Source of the DNA: Minisyncoccota bacterium
GTDB taxonomy: Bacteria > Patescibacteriota > Minisyncoccia > Phycocordibacterales > JACRKE01
Direction: 5' to 3'
Assembly: GCA_041660505.1 (NCBI GenBank)
Contig: JBAZWG010000001.1
Location: 307,979 to 371,978, forward strand
DNA length: 64,000 nucleotides
The notes beneath the pieces were generated by a model. It was not told the origin of the DNA. It worked only from the letters and a program-made list of their open reading frames with translations, and made no database searches. The translations under genes were made by a program, and so were the position numbers. This document shows positions 309 to 62,783 of this stretch, one piece after another (the first letter of the stretch is position 1; the number at the start of each line of letters is the position of its first letter).

Positions 309-424
309 CTAGGTAAGAGCTTCCTCTGATTGTGTTTCCTCAATGTTCATTTTGATATTGTACCTCGTATACAAAGCAAACTCAATAAGTGGCGCAATCA
401 TGATTTTTGGGCTATAGTGGAGAG

Positions 425-2209
425 ATGAATATTGAAACCAAAACCTGCCAGAATTGCAAAAAGAGCTTTAATATTGAGCCGGAAGACTTTGAGTTTTACG
501 AAAAAATAAAAGTTCCTCCGCCTACTTTCTGTCCTGACTGCCGACTGAAAAGAAGACTGATCTGGAGAAATGAACGAGCTTTATTTAAAAGAAAGTGTGA
601 CGCCACAGGAAAGGAAATATTCTCCATGTTTCATCCTGACGCCCAAGTCAGAGTCTATGATCGCGATTATTGGTGGTCAGATTCATGGGATGCCACTGAT
701 TATGGCCGAGAATATGACTTTAATAGGCCATTTTTTGAACAATTCAAAGAACTTATCCGTGACGTGCCGTGGTTTAGCCGCTCGGTGAACGATACAGTGA
801 ACAGCGATTATTGTATGAATGCAGGGTGGCTCAAGAATTGCTACCTTCTTTTTTCTGCGGCTTATAACGAGAACTGCAACTATTCAGTAGACTTGGACAA
901 TTCGAGAGAATGTGCGGATTTGTTTTTCTGCAGTTATTGCGAACTTTGTTACACCTCTTGCGGCTGTTCAAATTGCTATAAGGTGTTCTATTCTGTAGAT
1001 TGTCGAAATTGCCAGGAAACATTTTACTCGAAAAATTGCACGAATTGTTCCAATATTTTCGGCTGTGTAAATTTAAACAATAAACAATATTGTATTTTTA
1101 ATCAGCAATATTCTGCCGAAGAATACAAAAATAAGCTGCTTGAATTAAATCCGTTCTCTTATGAAAATCTTGACGACAATGCTGAGAAATTCAAAGAGTT
1201 CGCTTACCGCTTCCCCGTTAGGTCTATGCACGGCAGGCAGAATGTTAATGTATCCGGAGATCATCTAAACAATTCAAAGAACGTCTCGAATTCTTATTAC
1301 TGCGGATCACTCGAAGACTCTCGTTTTTGCCAGTTCCTATTGACACCCCCTGGTTCGAGAGACTGTTACGACTTTACTGTTTTTGGCACAAATTCAGAAT
1401 TGGTATATGAAAACTGCCAATCGGGTATCGATGTTTCAAGACTAAAATTCTGCGCGTATATGTATCCGGCATCTCATGATGCTGAATATTCAATCACGTC
1501 TCCGTCTTCAAGCTATATCTTTGGCTGTGCCGGACTTAAAAGGAAACAATATTGCATCTTAAACAAGCAGTATAGTAAAGAAGAATACGAAGCGCTCGTA
1601 CCGAAGATAATTCAGCAGATGAATAATATGCCGTACATTGACGCGCAAAAGCGTGAATACAGATATGGGGAATTCTTTCCGATGGAACTTTCTCCCTTTG
1701 CCTACAACGAGACATTAATCTATGACTTGTTTCCGCTATCGCCAAACGAAGTGACGAGTAAAGGATATATCTGGCGAGAGCAGACCAAGAAGACTTATTC
1801 TATAACCAAACTGGCAAATGACTTGCCCGACAAAATCACAGATACTGATGATAGTATTGTAAACGAGGTAATTTCTTGTTTACATCAAGGTGATTGTCCT
1901 CATAATTGCGTTTCTGCATTCCGTATAACATCACAAGAACTTGATTTATTGCGAAGATTTAATCTTCCTCTCCCGCGTCTGTGTTTCGCTTGTCGACACA
2001 GTGAAAGACTTTCATACAGAAACCCGCTCAAGCTCTGGCACCGCCAGTGTCAGTGTGGAGGTTTAACCTCCACCAATAGTGTCTACCAAAATACCGTATC
2101 TCATACTCATGGCGTGAACCAATGCCAAAACACCTTTGAAACATCGTACGCTCCCGACCAGCCGGAGATTATCTATTGTGAATCTTGTTATCAGCAGGAA
2201 GTGGCCTAG
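425..2209 (+). CDS. Cysteine-rich protein, paralog 1 of a tandem triplet. It has zinc-ribbon-like N- and C-terminal domains. Family unknown.
   Basis: The track ORF is 407..2209; the start is chosen at MNIETKTCQNCKK by alignment with the paralog starts MNPETKxCQNC. The N-terminus has CxxC...CPxCRxxRR. An internal duplicated module ends FGCxNLNNKQYCIFNQQYSAEEY and again FGCAGLKRKQYCILNKQYSKEEYEAL. The C-terminus ends NTFETSYAPDQPEIIYCESCYQQEVA. Confidence 0.7.
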   Translation: MNIETKTCQNCKKSFNIEPEDFEFYEKIKVPPPTFCPDCRLKRRLIWRNERALFKRKCDATGKEIFSMFHPDAQVRVYDRDYWWSDSWDATDYGREYDFNRPFFEQFKELIRDVPWFSRSVNDTVNSDYCMNAGWLKNCYLLFSAAYNENCNYSVDLDNSRECADLFFCSYCELCYTSCGCSNCYKVFYSVDCRNCQETFYSKNCTNCSNIFGCVNLNNKQYCIFNQQYSAEEYKNKLLELNPFSYENLDDNAEKFKEFAYRFPVRSMHGRQNVNVSGDHLNNSKNVSNSYYCGSLEDSRFCQFLLTPPGSRDCYDFTVFGTNSELVYENCQSGIDVSRLKFCAYMYPASHDAEYSITSPSSSYIFGCAGLKRKQYCILNKQYSKEEYEALVPKIIQQMNNMPYIDAQKREYRYGEFFPMELSPFAYNETLIYDLFPLSPNEVTSKGYIWREQTKKTYSITKLANDLPDKITDTDDSIVNEVISCLHQGDCPHNCVSAFRITSQELDLLRRFNLPLPRLCFACRHSERLSYRNPLKLWHRQCQCGGLTSTNSVYQNTVSHTHGVNQCQNTFETSYAPDQPEIIYCESCYQQEVA

Positions 2210-3351: not shown

Positions 3352-5106
3352 ATGAACCCGGAAACAAAGGCTTGTCAGAATTGTAAAAAGCACTTCACTA
3401 TAGATTCTAGAGACTTTGAATTTTACGAAAAAATAAGTGTTCCCCAGCCGACTTGGTGCCCTTGGTGCCGGATGATTCGGCGCATGGCCTTCTGGAATGA
3501 GCGTAGCTTCTTTAGGCGCACAGGAGACGATGGCAAACCGGTGCTATCAACTTACCCTCAAGAGTCTCTCTTCAAAATTATAGACGAGGATAAGTGGTGG
3601 TCAGACAGCTTCGATACATTAAGCTATGGCAGGGATTACGATTTTTCTCGACCGTTTTTCGACCAACTTAAAGAATTAGCCTCTACTGTGCCCTTCCCCC
3701 ACCGCGCCGGGATGGAATTGATAGATAGCGAGTATTCCAATAACTCAAACCATCTGAAGAACTGCTACATGTGCTTTAATTCCGCCAAGTGCGAAGACTC
3801 TTTATATTGCGTATTTTCTGGCGCGGTAAAAAATTGCATCGACATACTAAGCGGGTCGGACTGCGAGCTGTGCTATAACCTCGAGACCGGGAGCAGATGT
3901 CATAAAGTCTTCTTTGCCAGCAACACCGACGGCTGTATCAACTCGTGGCTCATGTACAACTGCAACAACTGCAGTGACTGCTTAGGTTGTGTTAATCTGC
4001 ATAAAGCGCAATATCACATCTTCAATAAGCCGTATTCTAAAGAAGAATACTTTAAGAAATTAGGAGGGTTAAATCTTGGCTCGCACCGAGCGCTCGAAGA
4101 ACACAAGAACGTCTGGCATGAGCTAATGCTCAAGTCTCCGAGAAAGTACTATGTCGGGATACAGAATGTGAATTCTATCGGCGATCTTGTCGCCCACTCC
4201 AAAGACGCTAAATATTGTTACGAAGCCTATGGGTTGGAAAGTGTTGCTTATTCCCAAGCACTGGCGCCTACGGTCCGCGATAGTTACGACTTCACCAACT
4301 GGGGCGTTAATGCCGAGAGAGTTTATGAGGCGGTAGATTGCGGCATACACGCATATGATATTAAATTCTCCTTCGGCTGTTCGCCGAACTGTAAAAATAT
4401 ACAATATTCGCTTGGTATTTTCTCCTCATCAGACTGCTTCGGTTGTGTCGCTACTAAAAAGGCACAGTATTGCATCTTGAATAAGCAATATAGTAAAGAA
4501 GAATACGAGGCACTCATACCGAAGATCGTCGAGCACATGAATGCGATGCCATACATTGACGCGCTTGGCCGGAAATATACATACGGCGAATTTTTCCCGC
4601 CCGATATGGCGCCATACGCGGCGAACGAGACTGCTCTGCTCGACTTTACCGATTTAGATGAAGAAAAGTCAGAGGCCTTCGGTCTAATCTGGCGCGAGAC
4701 TAAAACAGCAGAATATAAAACGACTATACAAGCGAAAGATCTGCCGGACAATATCAAAGACGCCGGTGAGAATATTACGAAAGAGATTATCGCCTGTGCC
4801 GGGTGCGAGAGAGCTTACAGAATTATTCCCACAGAGTTCACTTTTTATAAAACATACTCTATTCCTATACCCCGCAAATGCCATAATTGCAGATTTAAAG
4901 ATAGAGTAGCCTTCCGCAATCTGCCCAAGTGGTACCCCGGCAAGTGTAAGTGCGGAGGTCTCGCCTCCGCCAATGGGATGTACCAAAACACCGCAGAACA
5001 CCCACACGGCGCAGAACCCTGCCCCAACACCTTCGAGACGACGTACGCACCCGACCGTCCAGAAATTATTTACTGCGAGAAGTGTTATCAGCAGGAAGTG
5101 GTATAA
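3352..5106 (+). CDS. Cysteine-rich protein, paralog 2 of the tandem triplet
   Basis: 584 aa. It shares MNPETKACQNCKKHFTIDSRDFEFYEKISVPQPTWCPWCRMIRRMAFWNE with the other paralogs, has the internal motif KAQYCILNKQYSKEEYEALIPKIVEHMNAMPYIDA, and ends NTFETTYAPDRPEIIYCEKCYQQEVV. Confidence 0.75.
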   Translation: MNPETKACQNCKKHFTIDSRDFEFYEKISVPQPTWCPWCRMIRRMAFWNERSFFRRTGDDGKPVLSTYPQESLFKIIDEDKWWSDSFDTLSYGRDYDFSRPFFDQLKELASTVPFPHRAGMELIDSEYSNNSNHLKNCYMCFNSAKCEDSLYCVFSGAVKNCIDILSGSDCELCYNLETGSRCHKVFFASNTDGCINSWLMYNCNNCSDCLGCVNLHKAQYHIFNKPYSKEEYFKKLGGLNLGSHRALEEHKNVWHELMLKSPRKYYVGIQNVNSIGDLVAHSKDAKYCYEAYGLESVAYSQALAPTVRDSYDFTNWGVNAERVYEAVDCGIHAYDIKFSFGCSPNCKNIQYSLGIFSSSDCFGCVATKKAQYCILNKQYSKEEYEALIPKIVEHMNAMPYIDALGRKYTYGEFFPPDMAPYAANETALLDFTDLDEEKSEAFGLIWRETKTAEYKTTIQAKDLPDNIKDAGENITKEIIACAGCERAYRIIPTEFTFYKTYSIPIPRKCHNCRFKDRVAFRNLPKWYPGKCKCGGLASANGMYQNTAEHPHGAEPCPNTFETTYAPDRPEIIYCEKCYQQEVV

Positions 5107-5114
5107 TGACTGGC

Positions 5115-5160: not shown

Positions 5161-6900
5161 ATGAACCCAGAAACTAAAAGTTGCCAAAACTGCCAAAACC
5201 CGTTCGTCATCGAGCCGGAGGATTTCGGGTTTTACCAAAAGATAAAAGTTCCCCCGCCGACTTGGTGTCCGGAGTGTCGAAATGTACGACGAATGGCGTG
5301 GAGGGAGTATATGACCCTGTATCGCGGCGTTTGTGCGATGTGCCAGAAACAAATCGTAACCATTCATGCCCCGGGCGGGCCATTCACCATCTATTGCCGA
5401 GAATGCTTCAGATCAGACAAATGGAGCCCTCTTGACTATGGTAGAGATTACGACTTCGACTCTCCGTTTTTTACACAATATCGTCGCTTGATGGAAGCAG
5501 TCCCCCGACCGGCGTTAACCGGCTCGAATCTTGTGAACAGCGATTACACTCACGCCTGCGAGAGCATTAAAAACTGCTACTACACTTTCTTTAGTTTCCA
5601 AACCCAAGATTCGGAAAATTGCTATGCGCTATTTCTGTCTCAAAATTGCTTCGACTGCTATGTGACTGACAATTCTAACCAGGCTTATGAATCATTGCAT
5701 TCAAACAGATTGTACAGAGTGAGTTTCGGCTACTTCGCTGATGAATGCCTAGAATCGTCTTTCTTGTATGACTGTGTCGGCTGTTCAGACTGCTTCGGTT
5801 GTATAAATTTGAGGAAACAAAAATACTGCATTTTTAACGAGCAATTTTCCAAGGAAGATTACAAAGAAAGGATAAAATATTGGGATATCGGCAGTTATGC
5901 CAAACTCAAAGAAGCAAAGAAAAAATTCAGGGAACTCTATCTTTCTACGCCCCACCGTTATGCCAACATCCATCATAGCCAAGATGTTACCGGCGATATC
6001 ATTCGAGACGCTAAAAACTGCCACGCGTGTTTTTCTGCACTTGATGGTGTGGAAAATTGCAAATACCTGTATTTGGGCGGCTTAAACTTGAAAGACAGCA
6101 TGGATGTGAGCGGTGTTGGGTTGTCATCTGCGCTCCTATATGAAGTTTTTGGGATTACCGGAAATGCGTTTCGATGCTTTTTTTCTGTAGGCGGCGGTAA
6201 TTCCCAGAATACCTGGTATAGCGATTGGGCTAATAATTCATCGGACATCTTCGGCTGTATCTCTGTTAAGAATGTTAAAAATTGTATTTTAAATAAAAAG
6301 TATTCAAAAGATGAGTATGAGGCAATGATCACGAAGATCAAGAAACAAATGGACGAAGTCCCGTATGTCGACAAAAAGGGCAGAATATATAAGTTCGGCG
6401 AGTTCTTTCCGACTGAACTATCCGCTTATGCGTACAATGAATGTTTCGGGTTCCCGTTCTATCCGAAGACAAAAGAAGCGGTATTGGCCGAAAACTGGCG
6501 ATGGCAAGAATCAGCTGTCAGATCATATAATATCACCAAGGAGCCGCTAGATTTACCGGACAATATTCGAGATACTCCAGATTCTATTTGCAATGAAATT
6601 GTCGGCTGTATCGATTCCGATTGTGGCCATCAGTGCACCACAGCCTTCAGGATAAGCAAAAATGAACTCAATTTTTACAGGAGCATGAATGTCGCCTTGC
6701 CGAGGAAATGCCCGACATGCCGCACAGATGAACGCTTCGCTTGGCGGAACCGATATACTCTCTGGGAAAGACAATGTATGTGCGCGGTTGAGAGTCATGG
6801 TCATGGCAAACAATGCATAAACCGCTTCGAAACTACCTTCTCACCTGAGAAACCGGAGATTATTTACTGCGATCAATGTTATAAAGCAGAATTTATCTAA
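5161..6900 (+). CDS. Cysteine-rich protein, paralog 3 of the tandem triplet
   Basis: 579 aa. It starts MNPETKSCQNCQNPFVIEPEDFGFYQKIKVPPPTWCPECRNVRRMAWRE, carries a second CxxC...CxxC ribbon (CAMCQK...YCRECF), and ends INRFETTFSPEKPEIIYCDQCYKAEFI. Confidence 0.75.
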   Translation: MNPETKSCQNCQNPFVIEPEDFGFYQKIKVPPPTWCPECRNVRRMAWREYMTLYRGVCAMCQKQIVTIHAPGGPFTIYCRECFRSDKWSPLDYGRDYDFDSPFFTQYRRLMEAVPRPALTGSNLVNSDYTHACESIKNCYYTFFSFQTQDSENCYALFLSQNCFDCYVTDNSNQAYESLHSNRLYRVSFGYFADECLESSFLYDCVGCSDCFGCINLRKQKYCIFNEQFSKEDYKERIKYWDIGSYAKLKEAKKKFRELYLSTPHRYANIHHSQDVTGDIIRDAKNCHACFSALDGVENCKYLYLGGLNLKDSMDVSGVGLSSALLYEVFGITGNAFRCFFSVGGGNSQNTWYSDWANNSSDIFGCISVKNVKNCILNKKYSKDEYEAMITKIKKQMDEVPYVDKKGRIYKFGEFFPTELSAYAYNECFGFPFYPKTKEAVLAENWRWQESAVRSYNITKEPLDLPDNIRDTPDSICNEIVGCIDSDCGHQCTTAFRISKNELNFYRSMNVALPRKCPTCRTDERFAWRNRYTLWERQCMCAVESHGHGKQCINRFETTFSPEKPEIIYCDQCYKAEFI

Positions 6901-7591: not shown

Positions 7592-7600
7592 ACGAACGAA

Positions 7601-7636
7601 AAGGTTCAACCTTTTGCTTGCTTAAGGTTGAACCTT
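7601..7636. repeat. Family-1 paired palindrome
   Basis: aaggttcaaccttttgcttgcttaaggttgaacctt sits in the convergent gap before rplE. A degenerate agaaggtttaaccttct follows at 7656-7672. Confidence 0.75.
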
Positions 7637-7669
7637 CCTGTGCTTTATTTTTTTAGAAGGTTTAACCTT

Positions 7670-11655: not shown

Positions 11656-11731
11656 TGTTTTGAAAATAATGTCCCCAAAGGGACAATGCGCTATACTACC
11701 AGAAAACAGCCCCCTCTGTCAACGAAAATAT

Positions 11732-11762
11732 CCCATGTCCGAGGTCTCGCCTCGGACATGGG
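11732..11762. repeat. REP-like hairpin (family 3) immediately after the transposase stop
   Basis: cccatgtccgaggtctcgcctcggacatggg has a 13-bp stem and a 5-nt loop. Confidence 0.85.
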
Positions 11763-11763
11763 A

Positions 11764-12564
11764 TTATTCCTTAAATCCGAGCTCGGCTATGGCTGGGTCC
11801 TCCCCCTCAACCAGTTCTTCAGCATCTTCGAACAAGAAGTCTCGGTGCTCTTTTTTATCTTCGAAGATCTCCCAAAATAACTCGGGCGTAAGTAGTGAAG
11901 GAAAGTTTTTCGCTCCCAAATAGTCAGCACAGCTCGACCAGCGATAATTCTTCAAAAAAGCCTCTATTCTTCTATTGTCCGAGGCGAGACCTCGGACATC
12001 GTGTATTGGCATGAGATCGACGGGATTAAGGTGTATATATCGCGCCAATACCGGAAGATACTGCTCATTGGTCACTTCCTTGCTCTTGAATAGTCCTTGG
12101 TAAAGTGCGCCTGTGCGCTTGTGCTTTTTATTAAAAAACATCGTATGCCCTGTCAGAACTTTTTGCATGAACTTACTCAATCCCGTATCGGTCTTCGGCG
12201 AAAGTAGGAGGTGGATATGGTTCGGCATCAGCGCATAGGCCACAATGTCTACGAGCTTCTCCCGTTTATCGGGCTTTTCTGTCTTGTCCGAGGTCTCGCC
12301 TCGGACATTAGAATTTGAGGGGGTTTTACCTGCGTCGCCCTTCAGTTTACCTTCGTTGCGGATCTTTTCTATCGGTGCGGTGTCGTTACAGACATACAAA
12401 TAATGAATAAACCGCCTGTAGTCGCGATTGTCCAGAAAAATATCGCGCTTCTCCGTCCCCCGATTATAGATATGATAATAAGCTCCCGCCTCAAATGGTA
12501 TTCGTTCCATATAGCCTAGTATACCACGGATAATGGCGGAGGTTGAACCTCCGCCATATAACAA
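11764..12564 (-). mobile_element. tnpA: IS200/IS605-type HuH tyrosine transposase (REP-associated RAYT-like), inserted between rpsS and rplB
   Basis: It contains an HuH motif (ALMPNHIHLLL) and a downstream tyrosine region (ARYIHLNP). The likely real start is MERIPFEAGAYYHIYNRG at 12510. Two copies of the GTCCGAGG-N5-CCTCGGAC hairpin lie in-frame inside it, at 11976-11999 and 12285-12307, encoding VRGLASD and VRGETSD. A ggcggaggttgaacctccgcc hairpin at 12533-12553 sits just upstream. Confidence 0.75.
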
Positions 12565-13451: not shown

Positions 13452-13460
13452 ATTGGTTTT

Positions 13461-13499
13461 CCGAGGCGAGACCTCCGCCTTTGCCGGAGGTCTCGCCTC
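13461..13499. repeat. GC-rich hairpin related to family 3 (GAGGCGAGACCTCCG / CGGAGGTCTCGCCTC)
   Basis: 15-bp perfect inverted arms around loop cctttgc, between rplW and rplB. Confidence 0.8.
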
Positions 13500-15481: not shown

Positions 15482-15487
15482 AGTGTA

Positions 15488-15527
15488 ATCGGAGGTCCGA
15501 CCTCCCTCTGGAGGTCGGACCTCCGAT
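15488..15527. repeat. GC-rich double palindrome (CGGAGGTCCGACCTCC arms)
   Basis: atcggaggtccgacctcc-ctct-ggaggtcggacctccgat lies between tuf and rpsJ. It is related to the CGGAGGTC family. Confidence 0.8.
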
Positions 15528-15531
15528 TTCT

Positions 15532-16867: not shown

Positions 16868-19800
16868 CTACTTGAGCGAGGCTTTCAAGGCTTGCAGAGC
16901 CTTAAGAATACTGGCAAGTTGTAGATTCATACTCTTCGTATTTAACGATGCTGCCGCCGCCGTAACCGTAAAGTTAGCGGTAGCCCTTCCACCATCAGGG
17001 TTTGTGACAACAACTTCCTTGCTTCCGGCTGCGGTAATGTTGCTACCGAGTACTTGAGCAACCATCCAAGTGCTAGATCGTGCCCTTCCACTGCCATCCG
17101 ACGATAGAACTTGATTTACCGGCACTCCACCAAAGGTGACGGTGGAATTGAGGGCAAAGTTGGTTCCATTAATAGTTAGCCAGAAATATGAGGGGTTTGA
17201 GCCGGCAACGAGTGTTGCCGGAGAGAGCGAGGTGATGGTGGGAGTAGTGGCGGCAGGCGTGACAACCGTGAATACTGATGGTAGTCTCACATAGCCACCT
17301 GCGGACTGATAGACTATTAAACCATAACTGCCGGGTAGGAAATTGGTTGGTATATCCCAAGTCACACTATTGCCAGTAATATTTTGGGCAATATAGATAT
17401 TGCTTGGCCCCTCTGTCGCTAACGTAATAGGGCCTGTAGAACCGGCGGGTACTCTTGTAAAACCAACTGTTACCCTAGAGCCTGGATTTATTATGCTACC
17501 TGATGCTGGTGTGACTGTGATACCGCTTACCGAGGTGGTGGGGATGGGGGTAGCGGAGACCACTGTGTAATCCACTGTCACTGTATTCCCTATCTGTGCG
17601 CCTGACCTCTGCAATTTCCACTGTCGACTGATTGCTCCGAGATTACTCGTACCTTCAGTGAGGAATGTCACGGTGTAGCTTCCATCGCTATTTCGCACCA
17701 CCGTACTGCAGTTTGAATTACTCTGCAAAGAGATAGAACTGCACACCTGACCTCCGTTAAACTCCGGTCCTCTGTATAGATTAACATCGTTACCCCACAC
17801 CGCCGTACCTGTGTTTTTCACAGTGATAGTCGGTCGGAATGTACTGTTTTGAACCACATTTTTGTTCGCCGGAACTCCACCTACTGTGAGAGTCGCTTGA
17901 TAGGTAGGTTCAGCGACAACTGGGGCTCCATACTGCACATCGGCCTGGTAGTACCAACCTGACACCTGCGTGTCACCGTTATATGCGACTACGACATAGT
18001 GATATTTTGTTCCAAGTACCAGAGTCCTGCCGTTACTACCTGTATCTACACAAGATGGCGCATTCGGGCTGAAGCCGATGGCACAGTCAGTGCTAACGTC
18101 AGACCAGAAATCCTTACGGTCAGAGAGACTCCCGTCTGTCGGGCTAACGACATAGCGCAAGAAAGCGTATCTGTTGTAATTTGGGTGCTTAGGCCAAGTG
18201 AAGGTTATCTTGCCGGCGGTTGTGTCTGCGACTGCTGTGGCGGTGGTCGGTACGGTCTGGGTAGCATCGATAATAATATTCCTTATAGAGGAACATGTGG
18301 TCAAATTCTTTTTACATACGCGTATCTGTAGATTTCCAACAGGAGTATCGCCGCCAGTACCCAGATTCAATGCACCAAGACCTAATTGGATATCGGCCAC
18401 AGAAGTGTTCCAATTTGTAGCACTTGCAGCTTTATATTGAACCGTGGCTAATTCAGTTGAAGAAATTTCGAGAAATGACCACGTTAGTGACACTGATTGA
18501 CCCATAGTGACATGAGCACCCTCAATAGGATTATTTATGGTAATAGACCCCATGATTGTTGGTGTCGTTCCATACACCACATCGGCTTGATATGAGTATT
18601 CACTTGTAGGAACTTGGCTTATGTAGCCGTTCCATGCATATACTTTGTATCGATATTTTGTTCCAAGCACTAGACCTGATTTGTCGACACAAGACGGTGA
18701 GTTACGATCGAAAGAGTTTGAACTGGTTGTGCTTGAACATTCACCAGTGTCTGACCATAAATATTTTTCCACGGCAGATTCCGTACCAGCTGAATTTACC
18801 GTCCTGCGAGAAACAACATATCTATTGTATGTCGGGTGCTTCGGCCAAGTGAATGTAACCTTACCGGCGGTTGTGTCTGCGACCGCGGAAGCCGTTAGGG
18901 TTGTTGGGTTGTTGATTGTAATACCGTCTGTTTTTGCCGTTGCGATTATTAAGCCTTCGGGATGGACCGTGGCATCAGCGAGGGCGATACTAAGCAGATA
19001 TTCACCTGCTGGGATTGCATTAGTATTCGGTAAAGTCCAGCTCATTGTCCCGGCTGATGCGATTGGATGAGCACTCAAACCGACGTCTTGCTGTGGTAGC
19101 CCGGTGTCGCTACCTACTGGATACAGCGATACCACCACAAATAGATTATGATTTGTCGGCAAATTTGTAGTCGTCCAATTTACTGCGTAAGTAGCACCTT
19201 TCTGTAAACGGTTGCCACCGCTCGGTCCAGTAATTGTGATTGTCGGGGAAACCGGCGCTGTCGCAGTCAGGCGGGTCCCTGTACCGTATACAGTCCCTGC
19301 GGAACGCAATTGAATCAAACCTGCATCTGCGCTGTCGATCTTTCCGTCATCGTTTACATCACACGACCTACTGGCCGGACATGAGAATCCGGGTTTATTT
19401 ATGGAAAGGTTGTACATAAACGACACATCCGTGCTGGTGAATGCGCCGTCGCCGTTCACATCAAATGTTGAATCGGGAACATTAATGACTCCATTGTCCA
19501 ATCTGGCTCCCTGACCAAACTTAGCTTGCGAAAGCCTCGATGCCATGAGTGCCGTATCGCTGTCGTCCACTTTTCCATCTCCATTCAAATCACACTTCTC
19601 TATCGTACAGACAGATGTTTTGCCGAGAGTGAAGTTGATTATATTCTGCTGATCTGAAGAATCTACTCTGCCGTTTGCATTTATATCGAGAGCACTGTCG
19701 AGAAGTTTGATGTCTCCGGTGTTTGTCGGGACAAAACGTGCACCGGTACCAAATATCATGTTGGTGCCCATAGTTCTGTAAACCATAAGCTGTGAGTCAA

Positions 19801-20722
19801 CTATGTCAACAACACCGTCTTTGTTTAGATCGCACTTATTGGGCGTGCAAGCAGACTGCGTGCCGGCAATATAATTCTCTAAGGTTTGTACATCACTAGG
19901 AGAGACTCTTCCGTCGTTGTTTAGATCCAAATTAGCATCCGGCACGAGAATCTGTGCCACAGGCAGAACAGGCGTCTTTCCCGCTATATAATTTTGAATT
20001 ACCTTCAGGTCAATTTGGTCTACTCTAGTATCACCGTTTAAATCACAAGAGAGAATTGGGCATGTCTCTTGTCCATTAATAACTTTCTTCATGAGGTCAA
20101 TACTGCGCTGGTCTGCATGCCCTGTACCGGCTAGGTCATAATTCTGAAGAAGGTAGAACTGCGGTACGGCGATACTGCCTGCAGATGTCTCGATGGTAAC
20201 CTGACATGCCGGCGGGGTACCGCCTGCCGTATTCGCGCGCGGACAATCCGGAGTCTCGTGCAATTCCGGAATGACGAATTGGAGTCTTGTGCCATTACCG
20301 GTCGAGGAGACGTTCTCTACCCGCTTGCCGCCTATGACTACCGTGTCGGTAGCGTCGAAGTTGCGTCCGGTGATTACCACTGTCATGCCCGGCTCGCCCA
20401 TATAAGGCGTTATTGCAAAAACGGTTGGTTTGGAAGTCAGTAATCCTTGCAATGACTGGATGGCACTATAGAGTGCGGAGCTGATGAGGTTTTCGTAGTT
20501 TATTCTCTGGGTGTTTGTAATCTCGGGCGAATTGCGGACAAGATCGAGTAGATCATAGCCAGTAGTAATACTATTACAGGCCGACCGCATGCCGGCAGAC
20601 GGATTGTTGGCCAGAATAGTTGTGCATTGGCTCCGCGCATCGGCAGACACGCTGTGCGGGAATACGGTAACAGACACGAAAACAAGACCTGCCAGAAGGA
20701 GGCCTCCTAAAAGTTTTTTCAT
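16868..20722 (-). CDS. Giant secreted surface protein with IPT/TIG-like, Ig/FN3-like and about seven dockerin-like Ca-binding repeats
   Basis: The true start MKKLLGGLLLAGLVFVSVTV is a signal peptide with its ATG at 20720-20722. The track ORF runs to 20905 through the upstream gene. It carries repeats of the form CDLNGDTRVDQIDLKVIQNYIAGK and CDLNKDGVVDIVDSQL. It ends ...QLASILKALQALKASLK. Confidence 0.8.
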   Translation of the reverse strand: MKKLLGGLLLAGLVFVSVTVFPHSVSADARSQCTTILANNPSAGMRSACNSITTGYDLLDLVRNSPEITNTQRINYENLISSALYSAIQSLQGLLTSKPTVFAITPYMGEPGMTVVITGRNFDATDTVVIGGKRVENVSSTGNGTRLQFVIPELHETPDCPRANTAGGTPPACQVTIETSAGSIAVPQFYLLQNYDLAGTGHADQRSIDLMKKVINGQETCPILSCDLNGDTRVDQIDLKVIQNYIAGKTPVLPVAQILVPDANLDLNNDGRVSPSDVQTLENYIAGTQSACTPNKCDLNKDGVVDIVDSQLMVYRTMGTNMIFGTGARFVPTNTGDIKLLDSALDINANGRVDSSDQQNIINFTLGKTSVCTIEKCDLNGDGKVDDSDTALMASRLSQAKFGQGARLDNGVINVPDSTFDVNGDGAFTSTDVSFMYNLSINKPGFSCPASRSCDVNDDGKIDSADAGLIQLRSAGTVYGTGTRLTATAPVSPTITITGPSGGNRLQKGATYAVNWTTTNLPTNHNLFVVVSLYPVGSDTGLPQQDVGLSAHPIASAGTMSWTLPNTNAIPAGEYLLSIALADATVHPEGLIIATAKTDGITINNPTTLTASAVADTTAGKVTFTWPKHPTYNRYVVSRRTVNSAGTESAVEKYLWSDTGECSSTTSSNSFDRNSPSCVDKSGLVLGTKYRYKVYAWNGYISQVPTSEYSYQADVVYGTTPTIMGSITINNPIEGAHVTMGQSVSLTWSFLEISSTELATVQYKAASATNWNTSVADIQLGLGALNLGTGGDTPVGNLQIRVCKKNLTTCSSIRNIIIDATQTVPTTATAVADTTAGKITFTWPKHPNYNRYAFLRYVVSPTDGSLSDRKDFWSDVSTDCAIGFSPNAPSCVDTGSNGRTLVLGTKYHYVVVAYNGDTQVSGWYYQADVQYGAPVVAEPTYQATLTVGGVPANKNVVQNSTFRPTITVKNTGTAVWGNDVNLYRGPEFNGGQVCSSISLQSNSNCSTVVRNSDGSYTVTFLTEGTSNLGAISRQWKLQRSGAQIGNTVTVDYTVVSATPIPTTSVSGITVTPASGSIINPGSRVTVGFTRVPAGSTGPITLATEGPSNIYIAQNITGNSVTWDIPTNFLPGSYGLIVYQSAGGYVRLPSVFTVVTPAATTPTITSLSPATLVAGSNPSYFWLTINGTNFALNSTVTFGGVPVNQVLSSDGSGRARSSTWMVAQVLGSNITAAGSKEVVVTNPDGGRATANFTVTAAAASLNTKSMNLQLASILKALQALKASLK

Positions 20723-20825
20723 AATATATTGTTGCCTCGATGGGCTAATTAATTGCACTAAATATAATAATAAAGAGACGAGGTAAGTGTACCTCGTCTC
20801 TTTAGATGTGACAAGTTGATAAAAA

Positions 20826-21239
20826 TTACAGCGTTGTTTCGATAATTTCAACAAATTCTTCGATATCTCGGTATCGCTTCGTGAGCACATCGTACAGAAT
20901 GTCATAATTCACTTTTACATAATCATGCGCTATCACATTTCGAAATCCGACCATTTTCACCAATCTTTCCGATAGGTCATGCGGAATAACGTTATTCTCA
21001 TCGAGAACATAGAATGTTTCGCTCAAGGTGGTCGGCTTCCTTAATCTCTTGTAAGCAACTACCGCCTCGGCAAGATCGATCGTACTCTGGGCCATGAGAT
21101 ACAAATACCGCTCCACGGCTCCGCGTATCGTTTCATCAGCTACAATTTCTTCTTGTGATAACGTTCGATATCGGGCAATGGCTGTCAGATACTTACGCAC
21201 AAAGCCGATCATATTTTCAAGCACTATTTTATTCGACAT
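20826..21239 (-). CDS. HEPN-domain toxin (HepT/DUF86-like)
   Basis: 137 aa. It has the R-x4-HxY motif (GFRNVIAHDYV) and overlaps the upstream MNT gene by 11 nt. Confidence 0.75.
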   Translation of the reverse strand: MSNKIVLENMIGFVRKYLTAIARYRTLSQEEIVADETIRGAVERYLYLMAQSTIDLAEAVVAYKRLRKPTTLSETFYVLDENNVIPHDLSERLVKMVGFRNVIAHDYVKVNYDILYDVLTKRYRDIEEFVEIIETTL

Positions 21240-28848: not shown

Positions 28849-28879
28849 AAAGTGGTCAACACCCGATGTTGACCACTTT
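28849..28879. repeat. GGTCAACA-N-TGTTGACC hairpin (family 4)
   Basis: aaagtggtcaacacccgatgttgaccacttt is followed by ttgatt on the plus strand. A second copy is at 62727-62759. Confidence 0.7.
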
Positions 28880-29693: not shown

Positions 29694-29724
29694 ATCAGTT
29701 GTACCCGGAATGGGGACAACGCAA

Positions 29725-29760
29725 AAGGTTCGACCTTTTACTTGCTTAAGGTCGAACCTT
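29725..29760. repeat. Family-1 paired palindrome (tcgacc variant)
   Basis: aaggttcgaccttttacttgcttaaggtcgaacctt. Confidence 0.7.
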
Positions 29761-51300: not shown

Positions 51301-52090
51301 TTGTAATCTTGCTGGCGGGCAGTGCACCGACATAATATGGGACGAGAACACCGTTTCCGACTATTGTAGTTCCGTCGACAGCGACACTTGCGTATGGCCA
51401 AGCAGTGCGACAGTCGGTACCGAGGCACATTCTCGATGTAGATGCCGTACCTTTAACTTCGAAGCTGCCGGTCGTTGTGGCATTACCGGCTAGCATTGTA
51501 TTGCCCGTAAACCACGAGTCACCGGAGACCAGGAACTTTTTACCGCCGTTATTACTGGTGCCGATACTCACATTGCCGGTAGTATTGTCAGAGTACAAGC
51601 CGGCAACAGGTCCGAGCATGACCACTGACCCATCTTCACTCACCGCACTGTCTGTCAGGCTTGTGCTTAGTGCGTCCCATTTGGCTAATTTATTCTGCGT
51701 CCCAGACCCGCCGACCGAGCCGGCGCCAACGGTTGAGAAACACGTACTGGCAGAACCCAAACAGATCTTGTTTGCGAGAATATCTCCGAAGACATCAAGC
51801 TTGAGATTCTGATTTATCTGTAGATCGGCAGCCGCATCGCGGGGTGCGTATACACTCGGCAGGCCTATAGTAGAAAGTCCGTTGTCAACCGACAAGCCGA
51901 CAGGAACACCGGAGTCTGTTCCCACGCGGAGTCCGCCCTGCTTGGTCTGATCTGACGCGCCGCTAGAAATAGGTGCGTCTTTATCCGCGCCCGGCGGAGT
52001 TTGAGTAGGGCCAGTCCAAGCGAGCGCGGACGGAATTAGAGAATTAAAGAATATAAGAATTATTGGGAAAATTTTTAGGGCTTTAGTCAT
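48362..52090 (-). CDS. Giant secreted fibre-like protein with collagen-like G-X-Y repeats and phage tail-fibre-like Gly-rich repeats
   Basis: 1242 aa. It has the signal MTKALKIFPIILIFFNSLIPSALA-WTGPTQTPPG, the collagen-like tract GPTGPQGATGPAGSTGPTGATGPTGPAGS, and many GNVGIGTxxPxAKL(E/D)V units. It ends in a Cys-containing globular tail. Confidence 0.75.
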   Translation of the reverse strand: MTKALKIFPIILIFFNSLIPSALAWTGPTQTPPGADKDAPISSGASDQTKQGGLRVGTDSGVPVGLSVDNGLSTIGLPSVYAPRDAAADLQINQNLKLDVFGDILANKICLGSASTCFSTVGAGSVGGSGTQNKLAKWDALSTSLTDSAVSEDGSVVMLGPVAGLYSDNTTGNVSIGTSNNGGKKFLVSGDSWFTGNTMLAGNATTTGSFEVKGTASTSRMCLGTDCRTAWPYASVAVDGTTIVGNGVLVPYYVGALPASKITTGTMATARLGSGTANNTTFLRGDSTWATPTTQWTTSGNNITNNNSGIVEIAGQIKIDGGTPGNNKVLTSNGAGLATWQTPASSGVTSITAGTGLSGGTITTTGTIGIANSGVGTAQIADGSVTIAKLAGVKNAGTFLGYDGSWSAPVATVFANSPITGNGSSVATALSLADSGVTTAKIAPNAVTVAKLPAGATAATFLRGDGTWASGPTGPQGATGPAGSTGPTGATGPTGPAGSSPFVSISGGAYYLDNIGIGTTPSTAKLDVYGWSRIRKGASTAAGLYFNNNTTDQAYIGMLGTTQVGLTDTSGNYGFRLDTNTGNAAVSAPFSTHKLNVGGSINGTGLCINADCRTSWASVVSETDPKVGSLTTNFLSKWGTSALTNSIIFDNGSGVGIGTQTPNAKFEVAYGEVRLPAGKDSTAGLTSFNYLGNGINYLRGTTVIADTGGNVGIGTASPGAKLDVSGAINSSSNITATGNVSAAGNTFMGTHPSYPSSYSAWWRSGVDYSMLTDGTNTYVNAPSATGNIIFRSANASGAGKSFATMQGSTGNVGIGTITPGAKLEVAGQVKITGGTPGAGKVLTSDAAGLATWQTPAGGGGGGTVTGSGSAGYISKFSSASAIANSNIYDDGTNIGIGTPGPVAKLDVRGGNSYGVYAMSNVSGVFGVGIGTGNGVMGQGGGSGGYDFYGNGQSYFGGNVGIGTQTLSNAKLEVSSSGTVGIRVLNTGSYGVISNGATYGIYAKATGVGGYGGYFSSDQGPALVTSTGNVGIGTNSPTTAKLVISGTGAAQGIDLSSADQYANMRVLQNTNSAIDKDMYIGYNSGAGSKLHLYSNNTETITTYQGNVGIGNTTPSYKLEVNGIMRVSGASYLNGSVTVLGGIVANTDIGTAGKISSRSTVSGDTGSTVTTKDYVDSNAAPVGSWCGSALISSTGAPLSGGSRACKTVVNIYNSGCPAGYTRVGFPFGSGGSGSAGTLYTCMKD

Positions 52091-52160: not shown

Positions 52161-53972
52161 TTACTCATTCGCTACACGCAAGACTTCCTCTATGCTCGTT
52201 ACGCCTTGTGCGGCTTTAAATATGCCATCTTCGAACATCGTAAGCATGCCGGCCGCACGGGCAGTGCGCTCCAAGTCGGCATCGCTCGCGTTCTTGATGA
52301 TTAATTCTTTAATCGCCGGTGTCATCTTCATAATCTCGTGAATACCGACACGACTCTTATAGCCATCCGGGCAGTCTGGCGATGGCTTGGGGCGACAGAA
52401 TTGGATTTTTGAAAAGTCATCGGTCGGGCCGACTATTTTCTCTTCTCGTAATTTTTGCAGTACGACATCGAGATTAATATGCTTCTTTAGTGACTCTATC
52501 TCGCCCGCCGTCAGCGTGTATTTCTCGTTGACGTGGTGCAAACGCCGCACCAAGCGCTGAGCGATGACCACGTTAAGGGTTGAGACGAGCAAGAACGGCT
52601 CCACCCCCATATCAATAAGCCTCGGCACCGCACCGGCAGCCGAGTTGGTGTGCAAAGTAGAAAGCACAAGATGGCCGGTCAACGCCGCATTGATGGCAAG
52701 AGATGCTGTCTCTTTGTCGCGAATCTCCCCCACCATTATAATATTCGGATCTTGGCGCATCAGGGCACGCAAACCGGCACCGAAGGTCAGGCCGATGTCG
52801 GGCTTAACCTGCGTCTGATTAACACGACCCATCTGATATTCGATCGGATCCTCTATTGTAGAAATATTTACGTCCGGTGTATTTAGCGTGTCTATCATCG
52901 TATAGAGCGTCGTCGTCTTGCCCGAGCCGGTCGGGCCGGTGGCCAGGATTATCCCCGTCGTTTGTCTCATTGCGTCGTGAATAGCTTCGAGCCCGGCGCC
53001 ATGGAAGCCGAGCACCTCGAGAGTGAATCCCTTTGCTGTATCGGGAAGCAAGCGCATCACCACCTTCTCGCCGAAGTATGTCGGCAAGAGCGAAACGCGG
53101 AATGACACCTTCTGCCCAGTCTCGGCATTGTCGATTTTAAATCGTCCGTCTTGAGGCAAGCGCTTTTCATCTAGGCGCAGGTGCGAAAGCACTTTGATGC
53201 GCGCCACGATGCCGGAAGCGGCGGCGATTGGCAATATCATTGCGTCATGCAAGATACCGTCGATGCGATAGCGGATTACGAGCTGGCCCTCGAAAGGTTC
53301 GATATGAATATCCGACGCCTGCTGGAGAATGGCGTGCTCGAGCAAAGCGTCCACAATGCGCACCACCGGCACATCTTCTGCCAGCTTAGCCAGATCAGGA
53401 TCAACTTCAGGGCCAGAGGTGAGTCCTCTGACATTTTCAGCGGCCGAGGTGAGTCCTCCGGTTTCAGCGGAGGTCTCTCCTCGGCCACCTATCTTCCTCG
53501 CCTCTGAACTTATAATACTGCCAAACTCGTCGCGCAAGCTTTTCTGATATTGGATAAGACCTCCTTTTATAGATTCTGTGTCTGTGAGCCGCGGTAAAAT
53601 GCGCACACCCGTGCGCTTGGCGATGAACTCGATAGCCTCCACGTCTTGCGGATCAAGCATCGCTACCTCGATATTGTTGTCTTTATCTCTCGCGTAAGCG
53701 AGCACATTGTGTTTGCGCGCAATCGGTTCCGGGATTATTGCAAGCAGTTTCGGGTCTATCTTCTGACCCTTTAAAGATATGAATGGAATGCCGAAGAGGT
53801 ACGCCTGCACACGGCGGAATTCGTCTTCGGTAATCTTACCTTCAGAAACTAAAACGTCGCCGACCGTTCTATCCTTCTCCTTTGCAAGTTTATCTGCCGC
53901 GTCGAAGTCGGCACCAGAGATCAAGCCGGCATCGAGCACGAATTGCTTGAGCTGTTTGGTGTCGAGTTGCAT
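52161..53972 (-). CDS. pilB: Type IV pilus assembly ATPase PilB (GspE family), with an in-frame repeat-derived insertion in the linker
   Basis: It has an N-terminal GSPII_E_N domain and Walker A GPTGSGKTTTL. The start is placed at MQLDTKQL (53972), because the track start 53993 lies in a family-1 repeat. Nucleotides 53413-53486 encode RGETSAETGGLTSAAENVRGLTSG. Confidence 0.85.
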   Translation of the reverse strand: MQLDTKQLKQFVLDAGLISGADFDAADKLAKEKDRTVGDVLVSEGKITEDEFRRVQAYLFGIPFISLKGQKIDPKLLAIIPEPIARKHNVLAYARDKDNNIEVAMLDPQDVEAIEFIAKRTGVRILPRLTDTESIKGGLIQYQKSLRDEFGSIISSEARKIGGRGETSAETGGLTSAAENVRGLTSGPEVDPDLAKLAEDVPVVRIVDALLEHAILQQASDIHIEPFEGQLVIRYRIDGILHDAMILPIAAASGIVARIKVLSHLRLDEKRLPQDGRFKIDNAETGQKVSFRVSLLPTYFGEKVVMRLLPDTAKGFTLEVLGFHGAGLEAIHDAMRQTTGIILATGPTGSGKTTTLYTMIDTLNTPDVNISTIEDPIEYQMGRVNQTQVKPDIGLTFGAGLRALMRQDPNIIMVGEIRDKETASLAINAALTGHLVLSTLHTNSAAGAVPRLIDMGVEPFLLVSTLNVVIAQRLVRRLHHVNEKYTLTAGEIESLKKHINLDVVLQKLREEKIVGPTDDFSKIQFCRPKPSPDCPDGYKSRVGIHEIMKMTPAIKELIIKNASDADLERTARAAGMLTMFEDGIFKAAQGVTSIEEVLRVANE

Positions 53973-53983
53973 GAGATCGACAC

Positions 53984-54024
53984 CGAGGTTCAACCTTTTT
54001 GATGCCTAAGGTTGAACCTCGGTG
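53984..54024. repeat. Family-1 paired palindrome, extended variant (ccgaggttcaacc...ggttgaacctcgg)
   Basis: accgaggttcaacctttttgatgcctaaggttgaacctcggtgg. Confidence 0.8.
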
Positions 54025-54513: not shown

Positions 54514-57500
54514 TTATCGCTTGATGCAAGAAAATGCATAAGTTCTGGCCTCGTTGGCAAGCTGGGCATTATCTTTAATATTAAAGCTGATGGCTCCGGT
54601 AGTAACAATCTTCCAACCTGCTTCACACCCCTTCCCCGACATCGGTGCGATAAACGATGTCATGAAATCCCCGCTCGCAACCTTGGCCGCAATAACTGAA
54701 TCAGGAATTTCACATGAAGTGGGTGTGCAGTATGTCTGCGGTTGTATAAATGCTGAAACCCCATACCCTGCAATCGAACCGGCAGGAAGTGAGTTGTAGT
54801 TAGCTATTGTTGCACCGGTGCCTGCAGGACCTTGCGGTCCGGCAGGACCAGCCGGGCCCATTGGCCCAACTGTACCGCCAGTTCCTCCTCCAGTGATCCC
54901 TAAATCGGTTAGCGACTTCCAGCTCGCCGTACCATCACCAAATGAAGCAAGGATTTTTGATGTTTGTCCGGTACTCAAACCTTCCGTACCATCAGCAATA
55001 CGCACCTTGCCGCCGACTTCGAGCATGAGTTGAGGGGCGGTTTGCGCTTGTGCGGTTCCGATAAGAGAACTTACGGAAGCTGTTTGTTTTTGTGATTGCT
55101 GTTCATCTCCTCCAAATAGCGACGAGAACCATGAGCCGACCGAAGCCAACAATCCCTTCTTCTCGACATTGGCAATTGTTTTGCTTGCCGAAGCATTGAT
55201 TGAGAATATATTACTCTCGCTAGCCGGAACAAGAGGATAACACACCCCCTTATACAGAAGGGTATCTAGACTGGTAGACACTCCCGGCACAAAACTAAAG
55301 ATTGTGCCTGCGTCCAGTTGACCGCGACCCAATCCCATTGACCCCGGATTGTTGGTATATCCGGCAAAACATTTTGCATGGAGACCTGCAACCGCCGCAT
55401 ACCCATAGACTGAAGTGTTTGGCGCGACGACAGCGGGACCTTCTTGTGTAACAGGCGTATTGGTGTATGAGTGAACCGATGTGTACCAATCTTCAAACTT
55501 AGTATCATTTGGGGCGTGACAAATAGCGAGGGCTTTATGAGGTATTAAATCCCCGCCCGTATCTCGCATTTGGTCGAGAGTGGTCCAACCGGATGGACAC
55601 GTTGCCCGCTCTTCTTGAACTCCACTGGCCCCTTTAACAACAACCATGCCCACGCCTCCGGGGACGTCCGCCCAAGTTGTAAGTCGGTGATTATTCGGTT
55701 CACAAATAGCATGCAGGTTACTGATATGCGCAGTGAAACTATCGAGTTTAGTCATTCCGGATGGGCACGCACTGGTAGAACTCATAAAGCCGAGGCCGGA
55801 TGGAAGTGTCATCGTCTTTGGAGTCGGTGGTGCGTCAGTTGCCGTCATAGGTGGTAACACTGCCGGCGGGACCCCAGCCACTCCTGGCGACTTGCCGGTG
55901 GCAGATATAAGAACCTTGGCCCTAGCAATCACAGCCGTTCCATCTTTATCGCTTGCGGAGAAGTCTCCCCCGACACCACCAGGGCCACCACCTCTTCCAA
56001 CGACACCAGCACCGCCAAGATTGTTATAACCCATGACACCGTAAGTATTGCCATGTCCCACTATGCCATAGTTTCCAGTACTTTCACCGCGTATAGCAGC
56101 GCCCTTATCCGCAGACACCTCCAAGCGTGCGTCCTTCGGCTTTCTGACACCAACACCGATCCTTCCGTCTACATAGAGGTTGGCTGGGTCGGTCGGCGCG
56201 TCTGCCACTTCCGCTCCATAAGCGCCATGGGCTTTCCTTACGGCTTCGGCTTTTGTTATGCCGATACTTATATAGACACACATGGCATAATCGTCTTGCG
56301 TTATGCGATTGTCACCGTCTACATCAAGCTCTGCGAATTCCACAGTAGTTGGAGTATACGTGCCAAGCAGGTAGTTAGTTACTTTTTGCTGACTTGTCGC
56401 CGCTCCTCCTCTGCAATTCCCCCCACCGCCACCTCCTCCGCCAAGTTCACTTAAGCTCTTCCAACTAGCATTCCCCGTCGCGTCAGATGCGAGTACTTTT
56501 TTATCGCCTTCGTTAATACCTGTAAATTTGAGCGGACCGCTTGTTACAAGAGCCATGGAACCGGGATATCCAGTGAAAGAACCAGCGGTTGAACCATTCC
56601 CACTGCTTACGCCTGAAATTGCGATGGAACCCTGTCCTGTTACCGTCGCATCAACGCCTCTGGCGTCCACACCGTTCGTTTCTGTAATAATTCCGGTAGC
56701 ACTGCGAACATTACCGGTGTGTCTGATAGAAATACCAAGCGGTGATTTTACTCTGACTGAAGTGCCGATTTCTATCGCCCCCGGGTTTCCGGGAAAACTG
56801 TCGTATTGTCTCACCATCGAATCTCCAAGGACGCTACCGCCAACCCACTTAGGAAGATACCCTGGTGTACCACCGCCCGTAACGCCTGGTGGTGGCGGGG
56901 GGCAGTTGGTGCCTACACACTGTATTTTCGGTACGCAGATAGGCCTCCTTGTCGTCTGGTCGAAACCTTGAATCACTTTATCGACACCGCAATCGCCTAT
57001 CGCAGTTAAGATGGTCGGTGTGTCCGCACTGATAGTGCCACTTGTTGTAATTTTGTTAGGATCGGCGCCGTTGCCAGTGAAGACGATACCGTTGCCTTTA
57101 TTAAGTTCGCTGATGCCCGTATCGATAAAATCTCGCGTAACAAGATCAGACCATTTATTGATACAGTGCTGGTCGTCCGGCAAGCAGAGGCCAAGTGTCT
57201 TTATATTGCCTGCGACGTTGAAGAGCTGGGTGAAGAAGTTATTGTTATTATTGCCGACACCAGGATGGACAACTCCGTTATTGTCAGTAAATTCATAAAA
57301 TAACGAATCACCGAGGTTTGTAGCACCGAACCATCTGGCAAGCCTGCCTGGTGTGCCTTGGCCGGTTAGGCCACTACCCCCTGGCGTAATGATAATACAG
57401 TCAGCTGTCTGACCTGTTGCGATTTGCTCGGGGGTACAGATATTGGTGTTCGTAATATGATTGCTAATCTGCGTCCAGTCATATTGAGTAAAGCTATTCG

Positions 57501-62726: not shown

Positions 62727-62783
62727 AAATCTGGTCAACATCGGATGTTGACCAGATTTCAGTCCCCTCTCCTTCGGAGAGGG
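62727..62783. repeat. Two adjacent hairpins: a GGTCAACA-N-TGTTGACC element (family 4) and a CCCCTCTCC-TTCG-GAGAGGG element
   Basis: aaatctggtcaacatcggatgttgaccagattt is followed by cccctctccttcggagaggg. They lie in a convergent intergenic region and are probably bidirectional terminators. Related copies lie at 28849-28879 and 26537-26557. Confidence 0.65.

Follow-up and report, generated by a model that had tools for sequence, protein, structure and literature searches.

In-frame palindromic repeats in the PilB linker of a Paceibacteria genome are related to the REPs of its Y1 transposase gene

Repetitive extragenic palindromes (REPs) and the inverted REP doublets called REPINs have been described as repeated palindromes lying beside a tyrosine transposase, the REP-associated tyrosine transposase or RAYT (Nunvar 2010; Bertels & Rainey 2011; Ton-Hoang 2012; as summarised in PMC5581495). 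Intragenic REPs carrying a GTAG or CGTC tag were reported by Di Nocera et al. 2013 (PMC3733652), with more than half of them occurring as dimers or groups that encode 20-30 amino acids, including in DNA polymerase I; they were catalogued in Proteobacteria, Opitutus, Thauera, Rickettsia and others, and some were equated with the Rickettsia palindromic elements (RPEs; Ogata et al. 2000, as cited in PMC3733652). A keyword search of the literature library used here returned no paper linking RAYT or REPIN with Patescibacteria. Here, we analyze a single window of 64,000 nucleotides from a Minisyncoccota bacterium (contig JBAZWG010000001.1 of assembly GCA_041660505.1; the window is this whole stretch of DNA), together with short loci of its relatives, and describe three REP-like units that lie in frame in the linker of pilB, a gene for a GspE-family type IV pilus assembly ATPase, as well as the REP family and the Y1 transposase gene found in the same window.

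The pilB product contains an MshEN domain (PF05157, formerly GSPII_E_N; 56.1 bits, residues 67-152) followed by a T2SSE domain (PF00437; 402.5 bits, residues 205-606), and the repeat-coded residues, 171-196 of the 610-codon open reading frame (ORF), fall between the two. A preliminary description of this DNA, made from the letters alone, had placed three palindromes at this very point, between the N-terminal domain and the ATPase core, and had given the correct translation of the linker (Table 1). The palindromes share a GAGG-N5-CCTC core. Their arrangement differs from the three tandem units at about 30-bp spacing that had been proposed: there are indeed three copies, but they start 30 and 24 nt from one another and make up an inverted doublet and a singlet rather than a direct tandem array. 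According to a repeat finder, units 1 and 2 are the 19-nt arms of an inverted repeat (89% complementarity). Unit 3 points the same way as unit 2, which it repeats directly over 23 nt, 30 nt away and with 87% identity; a spacer motif, TTCAG, is seen three times in the array. The mRNA of the segment is predicted to fold at -51.9 kcal/mol (z = -4.36), with units 1 and 2 joined in one long hairpin and unit 3 forming an 8-bp hairpin. On the coding strand, each of the three units has loop-closing positions changed to A (GGC or GGT to GGA, GCC to ACC), and in unit 3 two synonymous changes (CGA to AGA, TCG to TCT) have turned a consensus C-G stem pair into A-T.

The core of these units belongs to a repeat family that is strongly overrepresented in the window, with 13 occurrences in 64 kb where chance would give 0.53, a count that 100 dinucleotide-preserving shuffles never reached; three of the 13 sit within 70 nt in pilB. 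An exact 21-mer, GTCCGAGGTCTCGCCTCGGAC, is found at 11737, 11977 and 12286, and a copy with 3 mismatches at 13459; the REP can be written as TGTCCGAGG-TCTCG-CCTCGGACA, with the consensus (A/T)TGTCCGAGGTCTCGCCTCGGACA(T/A). Against the 21-mer consensus, taken in the better orientation, unit 1 of pilB matches at 16 of 21 positions and unit 2 at 15 of 21, with the units ranging from 15 to 16. An ungapped alignment of the pilB doublet with an intergenic REP doublet (13461-13499) gives 31 identities over 39 positions (79%), and the cores of both are spaced 24 nt apart. Self-matches aside, nothing else in the window resembles the intergenic doublet as closely: the pilB doublet scores 23, compared with 6.6 +/- 1.4 and a maximum of 13 for 3000 shuffled 60-nt tiles. 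Six of the 13 cores lie in the approximately 7% of the window that is non-coding, an approximately 6-fold enrichment, and the other seven are inside ORFs; in a window that is 93% coding, little non-coding space is left, and this would explain why REPs end up inside genes.

Comparison with orthologs, based on an alignment of 60 PilB homologs, showed that the segment is present in some close relatives and missing from others, as expected of an insertion. PilB proteins usually have a short, acidic linker and a length of roughly 583 aa, the latter also seen in approximately 110 further homologs. The window protein is about 20 residues longer: an identical (100%) GspE/PulE-family protein of 603 aa from a 719-kb contig of a Candidatus Paceibacterota metagenome-assembled genome (MAG), P0001, was recovered by database comparison, and its length puts the annotated pilB start near position 53972. 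At the orthologous linker site, P0003 (84-86% identical, depending on the method) has GGAGGCGAGACCTCC-N9-GGAGGTCTCGCCTCG and a third, degenerate unit, and P0002 (85-87%, again by method) has GGCGGAGGTCTCGCCTCGGAC and two decayed units whose stems are lost. The linkers of both contain the exact 13-nt REP core GAGGTCTCGCCTC. The linker DNA of P0004 and P0005 (82-84% identical) has neither a palindrome nor extra residues. In neighbor-joining bootstraps over 562 gap-free columns, from which the linker was left out, P0004 branched off before the other four in 99.6% of replicates, making absence of the segment the ancestral state; P0001, P0002 and P0003 grouped together in 28%, and P0003 with P0005 in 56%. 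The pilB segment is thus kin to the REPs that flank and punctuate the Y1 transposase gene, as the preliminary description had suggested from a resemblance to the transposase hairpin: the exact core recurs in the orthologous arrays, the doublet matches an intergenic one, and the REP flanks the Y1 gene both in the window and in a syntenic metagenome contig (see below).

The linker was expected to tolerate such an insertion, and structure prediction agrees. In an AlphaFold2 model built from a 50-sequence alignment (mean pLDDT, the predicted local distance difference test score, 80.4), the REP-coded residues are coil with pLDDT below 50 (residues 166-189 in the 603-aa numbering) and connect a long helix, which ends at residue 167, to another that starts at residue 188. 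The segment is accordingly modeled as disordered, and the site appears fold-compatible. All columns that are 100% invariant in the 50-sequence alignment are kept in the window protein, and the ORF is intact. The assignment of the protein to the T2SSE/MshEN ATPase family, judged from its profile matches, is firm, whereas its exact PilB or GspE subtype is less certain because the TIGR02538 PilB model scores 518.9 bits, under the equivalog cut-off of 675.65.

The REP is also present in the same linker within a sister clade, P0006-P0010 (100% bootstrap support). In P0010, a Vogelbacteria PilB that is 68% identical, it contains a perfect 37-nt palindrome with a 16-bp stem, aaagcgatgtccgagg-TCTCG-cctcggacatcgcttt, whose core is identical to the window REP (an exact 23-nt REP) and which is read as KSDVRGLASDIAL. 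DNA polymerase I (PolA) of the same Vogelbacteria genome has this exact REP in frame too, where the 5'-3' exonuclease domain is joined to the polymerase domain. Among the Vogelbacteria copies, the outer bases of the stem vary yet remain complementary. Elsewhere in the clade, a decayed trace remains in P0007 (CGGGGAGGCGAGAATTCCGCT, matching unit 2 of P0003 at 16 of 21 positions), and no REP relic was found in the linker DNA of P0006. The sequences are most simply explained by an insertion in the Vogelbacteria PilB linker that would be independent of the one in the window lineage. The PilB linker is a recurrent site for this REP family, and the inter-domain linkers of PilB and PolA appear to be recurrent landing sites. 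When GTDB species-representative genomes, which do not include the source genome, were scanned for the 19-mer TCCGAGGTCTCGCCTCGGA, several copies were found in only one of them, the Vogelbacteria genome GCA_016215335.1. Each of the nine remaining hits was a single match; eight of them fell in lineages outside the candidate phyla radiation (CPR) and one in a Thermoplasmatota archaeon. A metagenome scan with the same 19-mer yielded 21 loci, approximately 14 of them low-GC and CPR-like, with mostly intergenic copies. Two high-GC metagenome matches in long ORFs (K[I/L]RGETSEGM) were set aside, as they look like chance hits to a conserved protein motif; at a guess, these ORFs may encode PheT.

Table 1. 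Repeats and associated genes in the window and in loci of relatives (positions refer to the window unless a locus or genome is named)
Feature	Position	Strand	Description
pilB (GspE-family type IV pilus assembly ATPase)	52161..53993	minus	610-codon ORF, TTG start
REP-derived in-frame linker segment	53409..53490	minus	encodes GGRGETSAETGGLTSAAENVRGLTSGP
REP unit 1 (coding order)	53467..53485		window letters gcggaggtctctcctcggc, coding gcggaggTCTCTcctcggc; read RGETS
REP unit 2	53443..53461		window letters gccgaggtgagtcctccgg, coding gccgaggTGAGTcctccgg; read GGLTS; orientation opposite to unit 1
REP unit 3	53413..53430		window letters ccagaggtgagtcctctg, coding ccagaggTGAGTcctctg; read RGLTS; 6-bp perfect stem
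REPIN-like inverted doublet (units 1 and 2)	53442..53486		cores 24 nt apart, start to start
Y1 (IS200-like/RAYT-like) transposase	11764..12510	minus	248 aa, two in-frame REPs
Reference REP	11730..11764		35-nt perfect palindrome atcccatgtccgaggTCTCGcctcggacatgggat, directly downstream of the transposase gene; holds the exact 21-mer
In-ORF REP of the transposase	11976..11998		read DVRGLASDN
In-ORF REP of the transposase	12285..12307		read NVRGETSDK; family-wide conserved hairpin position
Variant hairpin	12533-12557		23 nt upstream of the transposase ATG
Intergenic REP doublet (REPIN)	13463..13499		between rplW and rplB; 15-nt perfect arms, cores 24 nt apart
Variant REP doublet (GGAGGT-CCG/CGG-ACCTCC)	15487..15528		between tuf and rpsJ; 19-nt perfect arms
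In-frame REP core	4952..4970		gcggaggTCTCGcctccgc, in ORF 3352..5106; read CGGLASA
In-frame palindrome	2055-2073		gtggaggtTTAacctccac, in ORF 407..2209; read CGGLTST
Further intergenic hairpins	5114-5128, 7599-7615, 7654-7672, 29723-29739; 28849-28879, 62727-62759
Vogelbacteria REP in PilB	GCA_016215335.1 (MAG), L005/L009 about 6806-6842
Vogelbacteria REP in PolA	GCA_016215335.1 (MAG), L019 6167
Transposase hairpin, L043	6161-6185		cggaggtCCGacctccg; peptide GGPTS
Transposase hairpin, L044	6190-6214 and 6718-6742		atgtacgaggtTCGacctcgtacat; peptide MYEVRPRTF (twice)
Transposase hairpin, L045	6162-6184		tatagaggTTTCGcctctata; peptide RGFAS

The transposase encoded in the window matches Pfam Y1_Tnp (PF01797) at 39.6 bits (cut-off, 23) and contains an HUH motif (HIH) and YIHLNP. 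The NCBIfam model for REP-associated tyrosine transposases, NF047646 (REP_Tyr_transpos), is matched only over model positions 42-132, at 48.3 bits versus a cut-off of 80, and a sequence search of the PDB gave no match at E <= 1. Within the S10 ribosomal-protein operon, the gene has rplB and rpsS as its neighbors, and it is found in the same place in the metagenome contig L029, which encodes a 90% identical, syntenic transposase at 4117-4863. Exact REPs are present on both flanks of the L029 gene (4073 and 4871), with two more within it. The peptides VRGLASD and VRGETSD, to which the pilB translation had been compared, are indeed read from the two in-ORF REPs of the window gene. The REP at 11977-11997, read VRGLASD, corresponds to VRGETSD at 4631-4649 of L029, and the sole difference between the two is a reverse-complemented 5-nt loop (TCTCG/CGAGA); this is a hairpin-loop inversion in coding DNA, exchanging Leu-Ala for Glu-Thr.

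The preliminary description had treated pilB as a second in-frame colonisation after that of the transposase. Casual colonisation does not account for the transposase copy. Among homologs of the transposase (40 aligned, 40-67% identical, many of them annotated as CPR/Patescibacteria), nearly all of the 26 displayed have a [RG]-G-x-[TA]-S-type motif in the column of the first internal REP, and a few of those displayed have VRPRT or VSPRP, the peptides expected from another frame of a GAGG...CCTC hairpin. At the DNA level, an in-ORF hairpin follows the N-terminal YHIYNRG block and precedes the HUH motif at five of five loci, namely, the window (12285-12307), L029 (4322-4340), L043, L044 and L045. 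The last three are distant homologs, each with its own lineage-specific hairpin both flanking the gene and in frame at the conserved position. Because the internal hairpin covaries with the flanking REPs across lineages, it is, on the sequences compared, best regarded as a conserved trait of the transposase family. Keyword literature searches found no description of such an in-ORF cognate hairpin, which is not proof of novelty. If the trait is real, it would bear on self-recognition or self-regulation of RAYT-type transposases. As for pilB, its proposed colonisation is supported, but it is the fourth such gene in the window rather than the second, if the transposase itself and ORFs 407..2209 and 3352..5106 are counted.

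These last two ORFs encode Cys-rich paralogs, without a Pfam match in either, that have in common an 11-residue insertion not present in a third paralog, 5161..6900. Both insertions open with a perfect palindrome, and the two palindromes differ in sequence (gtggaggtTTAacctccac versus gcggaggTCTCGcctccgc), with a compensatory change of a stem pair from T-A to C-G.

We consider it probable (about 0.8) that the pilB segment is a relic of REPs native to this genome, namely an inverted doublet and one more copy in the DNA of the linker, where they are tolerated and slowly decaying. The REP copies would arrive by transposase-mediated transposition of single-stranded hairpins, as proposed for REPINs. 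The pilB frame would have stayed open because both spacings, 24 and 30 nt, are divisible by three and the palindrome has a stop-free frame, so that the hairpins would be translated as approximately 24-27 extra disordered residues rich in Gly, Ser and Thr. Once inserted, the copies would be neutral or nearly neutral passengers. Their decay would proceed by A/T-biased substitutions in the loops, which fits the changes to A at loop-closing positions of all three units, and the array would be reshaped by duplication or deletion of units and by loop inversion, which fits the different unit order and orientation in the three array-bearing orthologs (E-L-L in the window pilB, L/E-E-L in P0003 and E-E-L in P0002). 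Loop inversion, in particular, may be the cause of the differences in orientation.

Several points weigh against this reading. The pilB units are degenerate, with only 15-16 of 21 consensus positions retained, and the REP consensus has neither a GTAG nor a CGTC end tag. Unit 3, given its direct-repeat relation to unit 2, may have arisen by duplication of a local 30-nt stretch and not by an insertion of its own. The linkers of the orthologs have diverged too far for the exact insertion boundaries or a target site to be defined, and P0005, which has no array, is not clearly outside the array-bearing group, so that one loss or more than one gain may be needed. That the transposase moved the pilB hairpins is something we infer by analogy with REPINs. 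The better preservation of stems than of loops, along with the compensatory synonymous pair in unit 3, could reflect a constraint on the hairpins rather than pure decay. Finally, PilB linkers can lengthen by routes other than REPs, as seen in P0040 from another lineage (L046 1361-3154), where the linker is 14 aa longer and rich in Gly, Ser and Pro. This linker was considered as the product of another REP type and rejected, there being no palindromic DNA. An unrelated Gly/Ser linker of this kind had been named beforehand as the finding that would speak against a REP origin; it does so weakly and, judging from the sequences, does not undo the REP identity of the segment in the window pilB clade.

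The signs of hairpin constraint raise the question of whether the hairpins are selected in cis, either as an mRNA structure slowing ribosomes between the PilB domains or as a site that the Y1 transposase binds or cleaves. The very stable predicted fold, the retention of stems alongside diverged loops and the compensatory pair of unit 3 would all suit such a function, as would the persistence of perfect, different palindromes at the same site of the two Cys-rich paralogs, with their exchanged stem pair, and the retention of an in-frame hairpin at one position of the transposase family across lineages. However, P0004, P0005 and more than 100 other PilBs have no such structure, the stems are lost in two of the three units of P0002, and just a decayed trace is left in P0007. 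Moreover, intrastrand template switching can yield compensatory changes in quasi-palindromes without selection, and since it can mimic the pattern seen here, we regard selection in cis as improbable. An alternative history, which we consider less improbable but still unlikely, is a single REP insertion in the common ancestor of both clades (P0001-P0010), later refreshed by gene conversion or lost. REP traces in the same linker of both clades (perfect in P0010, decayed in P0007) and the variable orientation of units among orthologs would be accommodated by this scenario; the lack of a clear relic in P0004, P0005 and P0006 argues against it, and the perfect 37-nt palindrome of P0010 is simpler to explain as a recent insertion.

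The most conservative explanation would be an ordinary expansion of a low-complexity linker by tandem duplication of a 24-30-nt unit, with a coincidental likeness to REPs. The direct repeat formed by units 2 and 3 and the thrice-repeated TTCAG spacer are what such a process would leave, and linker length does vary in unrelated lineages without palindromes (P0040, as well as P0012 and P0056). Coincidence is hard to reconcile with three palindromic cores in 70 nt where 0.53 would be expected per 64 kb, with a doublet built and spaced like the intergenic REPIN or with the exact 23-nt REP in P0010, and the exact REP cores in the orthologous arrays leave this explanation, on sequence grounds, largely refuted and very improbable. 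For PilB itself, the decaying REP relic is a curiosity that accounts for the approximately 20 residues by which the protein exceeds its relatives, and annotators should take the extra Gly/Ser/Thr stretch as repeat-derived rather than as a functional motif.

A broader proposal is that the Paceibacteria REP family is 'coding-competent', being a regular source of linker insertions and of a two-state peptide polymorphism, and that the transposase could use its in-ORF REP as a site of autoregulation or cleavage. It draws on the in-ORF REP of the transposase, the coding copies of one REP type (type A) in a single frame (x-G-[L/E]-[A/T]-S), the loop flips from LA to ET and the perfect palindromes of the old paralogs. 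Type-A REPs were seen in the genes for PilB, PolA, Cys-rich proteins and the transposase itself, and one frame is shared by the copies in the window pilB, in pilB and PolA of Vogelbacteria, at the two transposase sites and in ORF 3352..5106; for approximately six independent sites, we calculate a chance of about (1/3)^5 = 0.004. A universal reading-frame rule was considered and rejected, as the cognate REP of L044 is read in another frame (MYEVRPRTF). We offer the proposal tentatively and consider it unlikely, although not far-fetched.

Other repeats and genes of the window and related loci complete the picture. The hairpin type of the variant doublet at 15487..15528 is that of the cognate REP of the L043 transposase, and another locus, L002, also holds an inverted REP doublet (6474/6498). 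The GGAGG/CCTCC stems are similar to Shine-Dalgarno and anti-Shine-Dalgarno sequences, and a GGTCTC (BsaI-type) site is found within the REP. The further intergenic hairpins belong to a family AAGGT-N3-ACCTT or have a 13-15-bp stem with GGTCAACA...TGTTGACC and could be terminators or represent other REP types. At 20771-20804, a perfect palindrome of 34 nt (taaagagacgaggtaAGTGtacctcgtctcttta) was dropped as an in-frame case in the dockerin-repeat ORF 16868..20905; it is probably intergenic, since the likely true start of that ORF (MKKLLGG..., a signal peptide) is downstream of it. The pilB gene is flanked by two very large ORFs on the minus strand, 48362-52090 (1242 aa) and 54514-57822 (1102 aa), both with Gly-rich and collagen-like GPxG stretches. 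A Pfam scan of the 1242-aa product gave no match, and similar large ORFs are found in the pilus gene neighborhoods of relatives.

Compared with the codogenic REPs of Di Nocera et al. (PMC3733652), the pilB REPs are likewise in frame and dimeric, leave the host gene intact and are missing from shorter homologs, and PolA is decorated as well; unlike them, the window REP has no GTAG or CGTC tag, the host belongs to Paceibacteria, a CPR lineage, and the Y1 protein is divergent. As in REPIN-RAYT systems, the window REPs are repeated, form inverted doublets that fold into a long hairpin and flank the gene for a Y1 HUH transposase. The differences are that this transposase scores below the NCBIfam cut-off (48 versus 80 bits), that it has its cognate REP in its own ORF and that seven of the 13 window cores lie inside genes. 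The sequences would thus document a REP and Y1-transposase system in ultra-small CPR genomes. With RPEs, the pilB repeats share the nature of a selfish palindrome in frame in conserved genes, at fold-compatible sites, in a small-genome, host-dependent bacterium. The units differ in size, being about 21-25 nt in the window, whereas RPE-1 is about 100-150 bp and its sequence is unrelated to the window REP; RPE-1 is not known to have a cognate transposase. Small hairpin-loop inversions are well known in plastid non-coding DNA, and the loop flip between 11977-11997 and L029 4631 similarly occurs between perfectly complementary arms, although here it is in coding DNA and swaps two amino acids. Taken together, these comparisons support the view that pilB is a further instance of a known route by which selfish hairpin DNA lengthens proteins.

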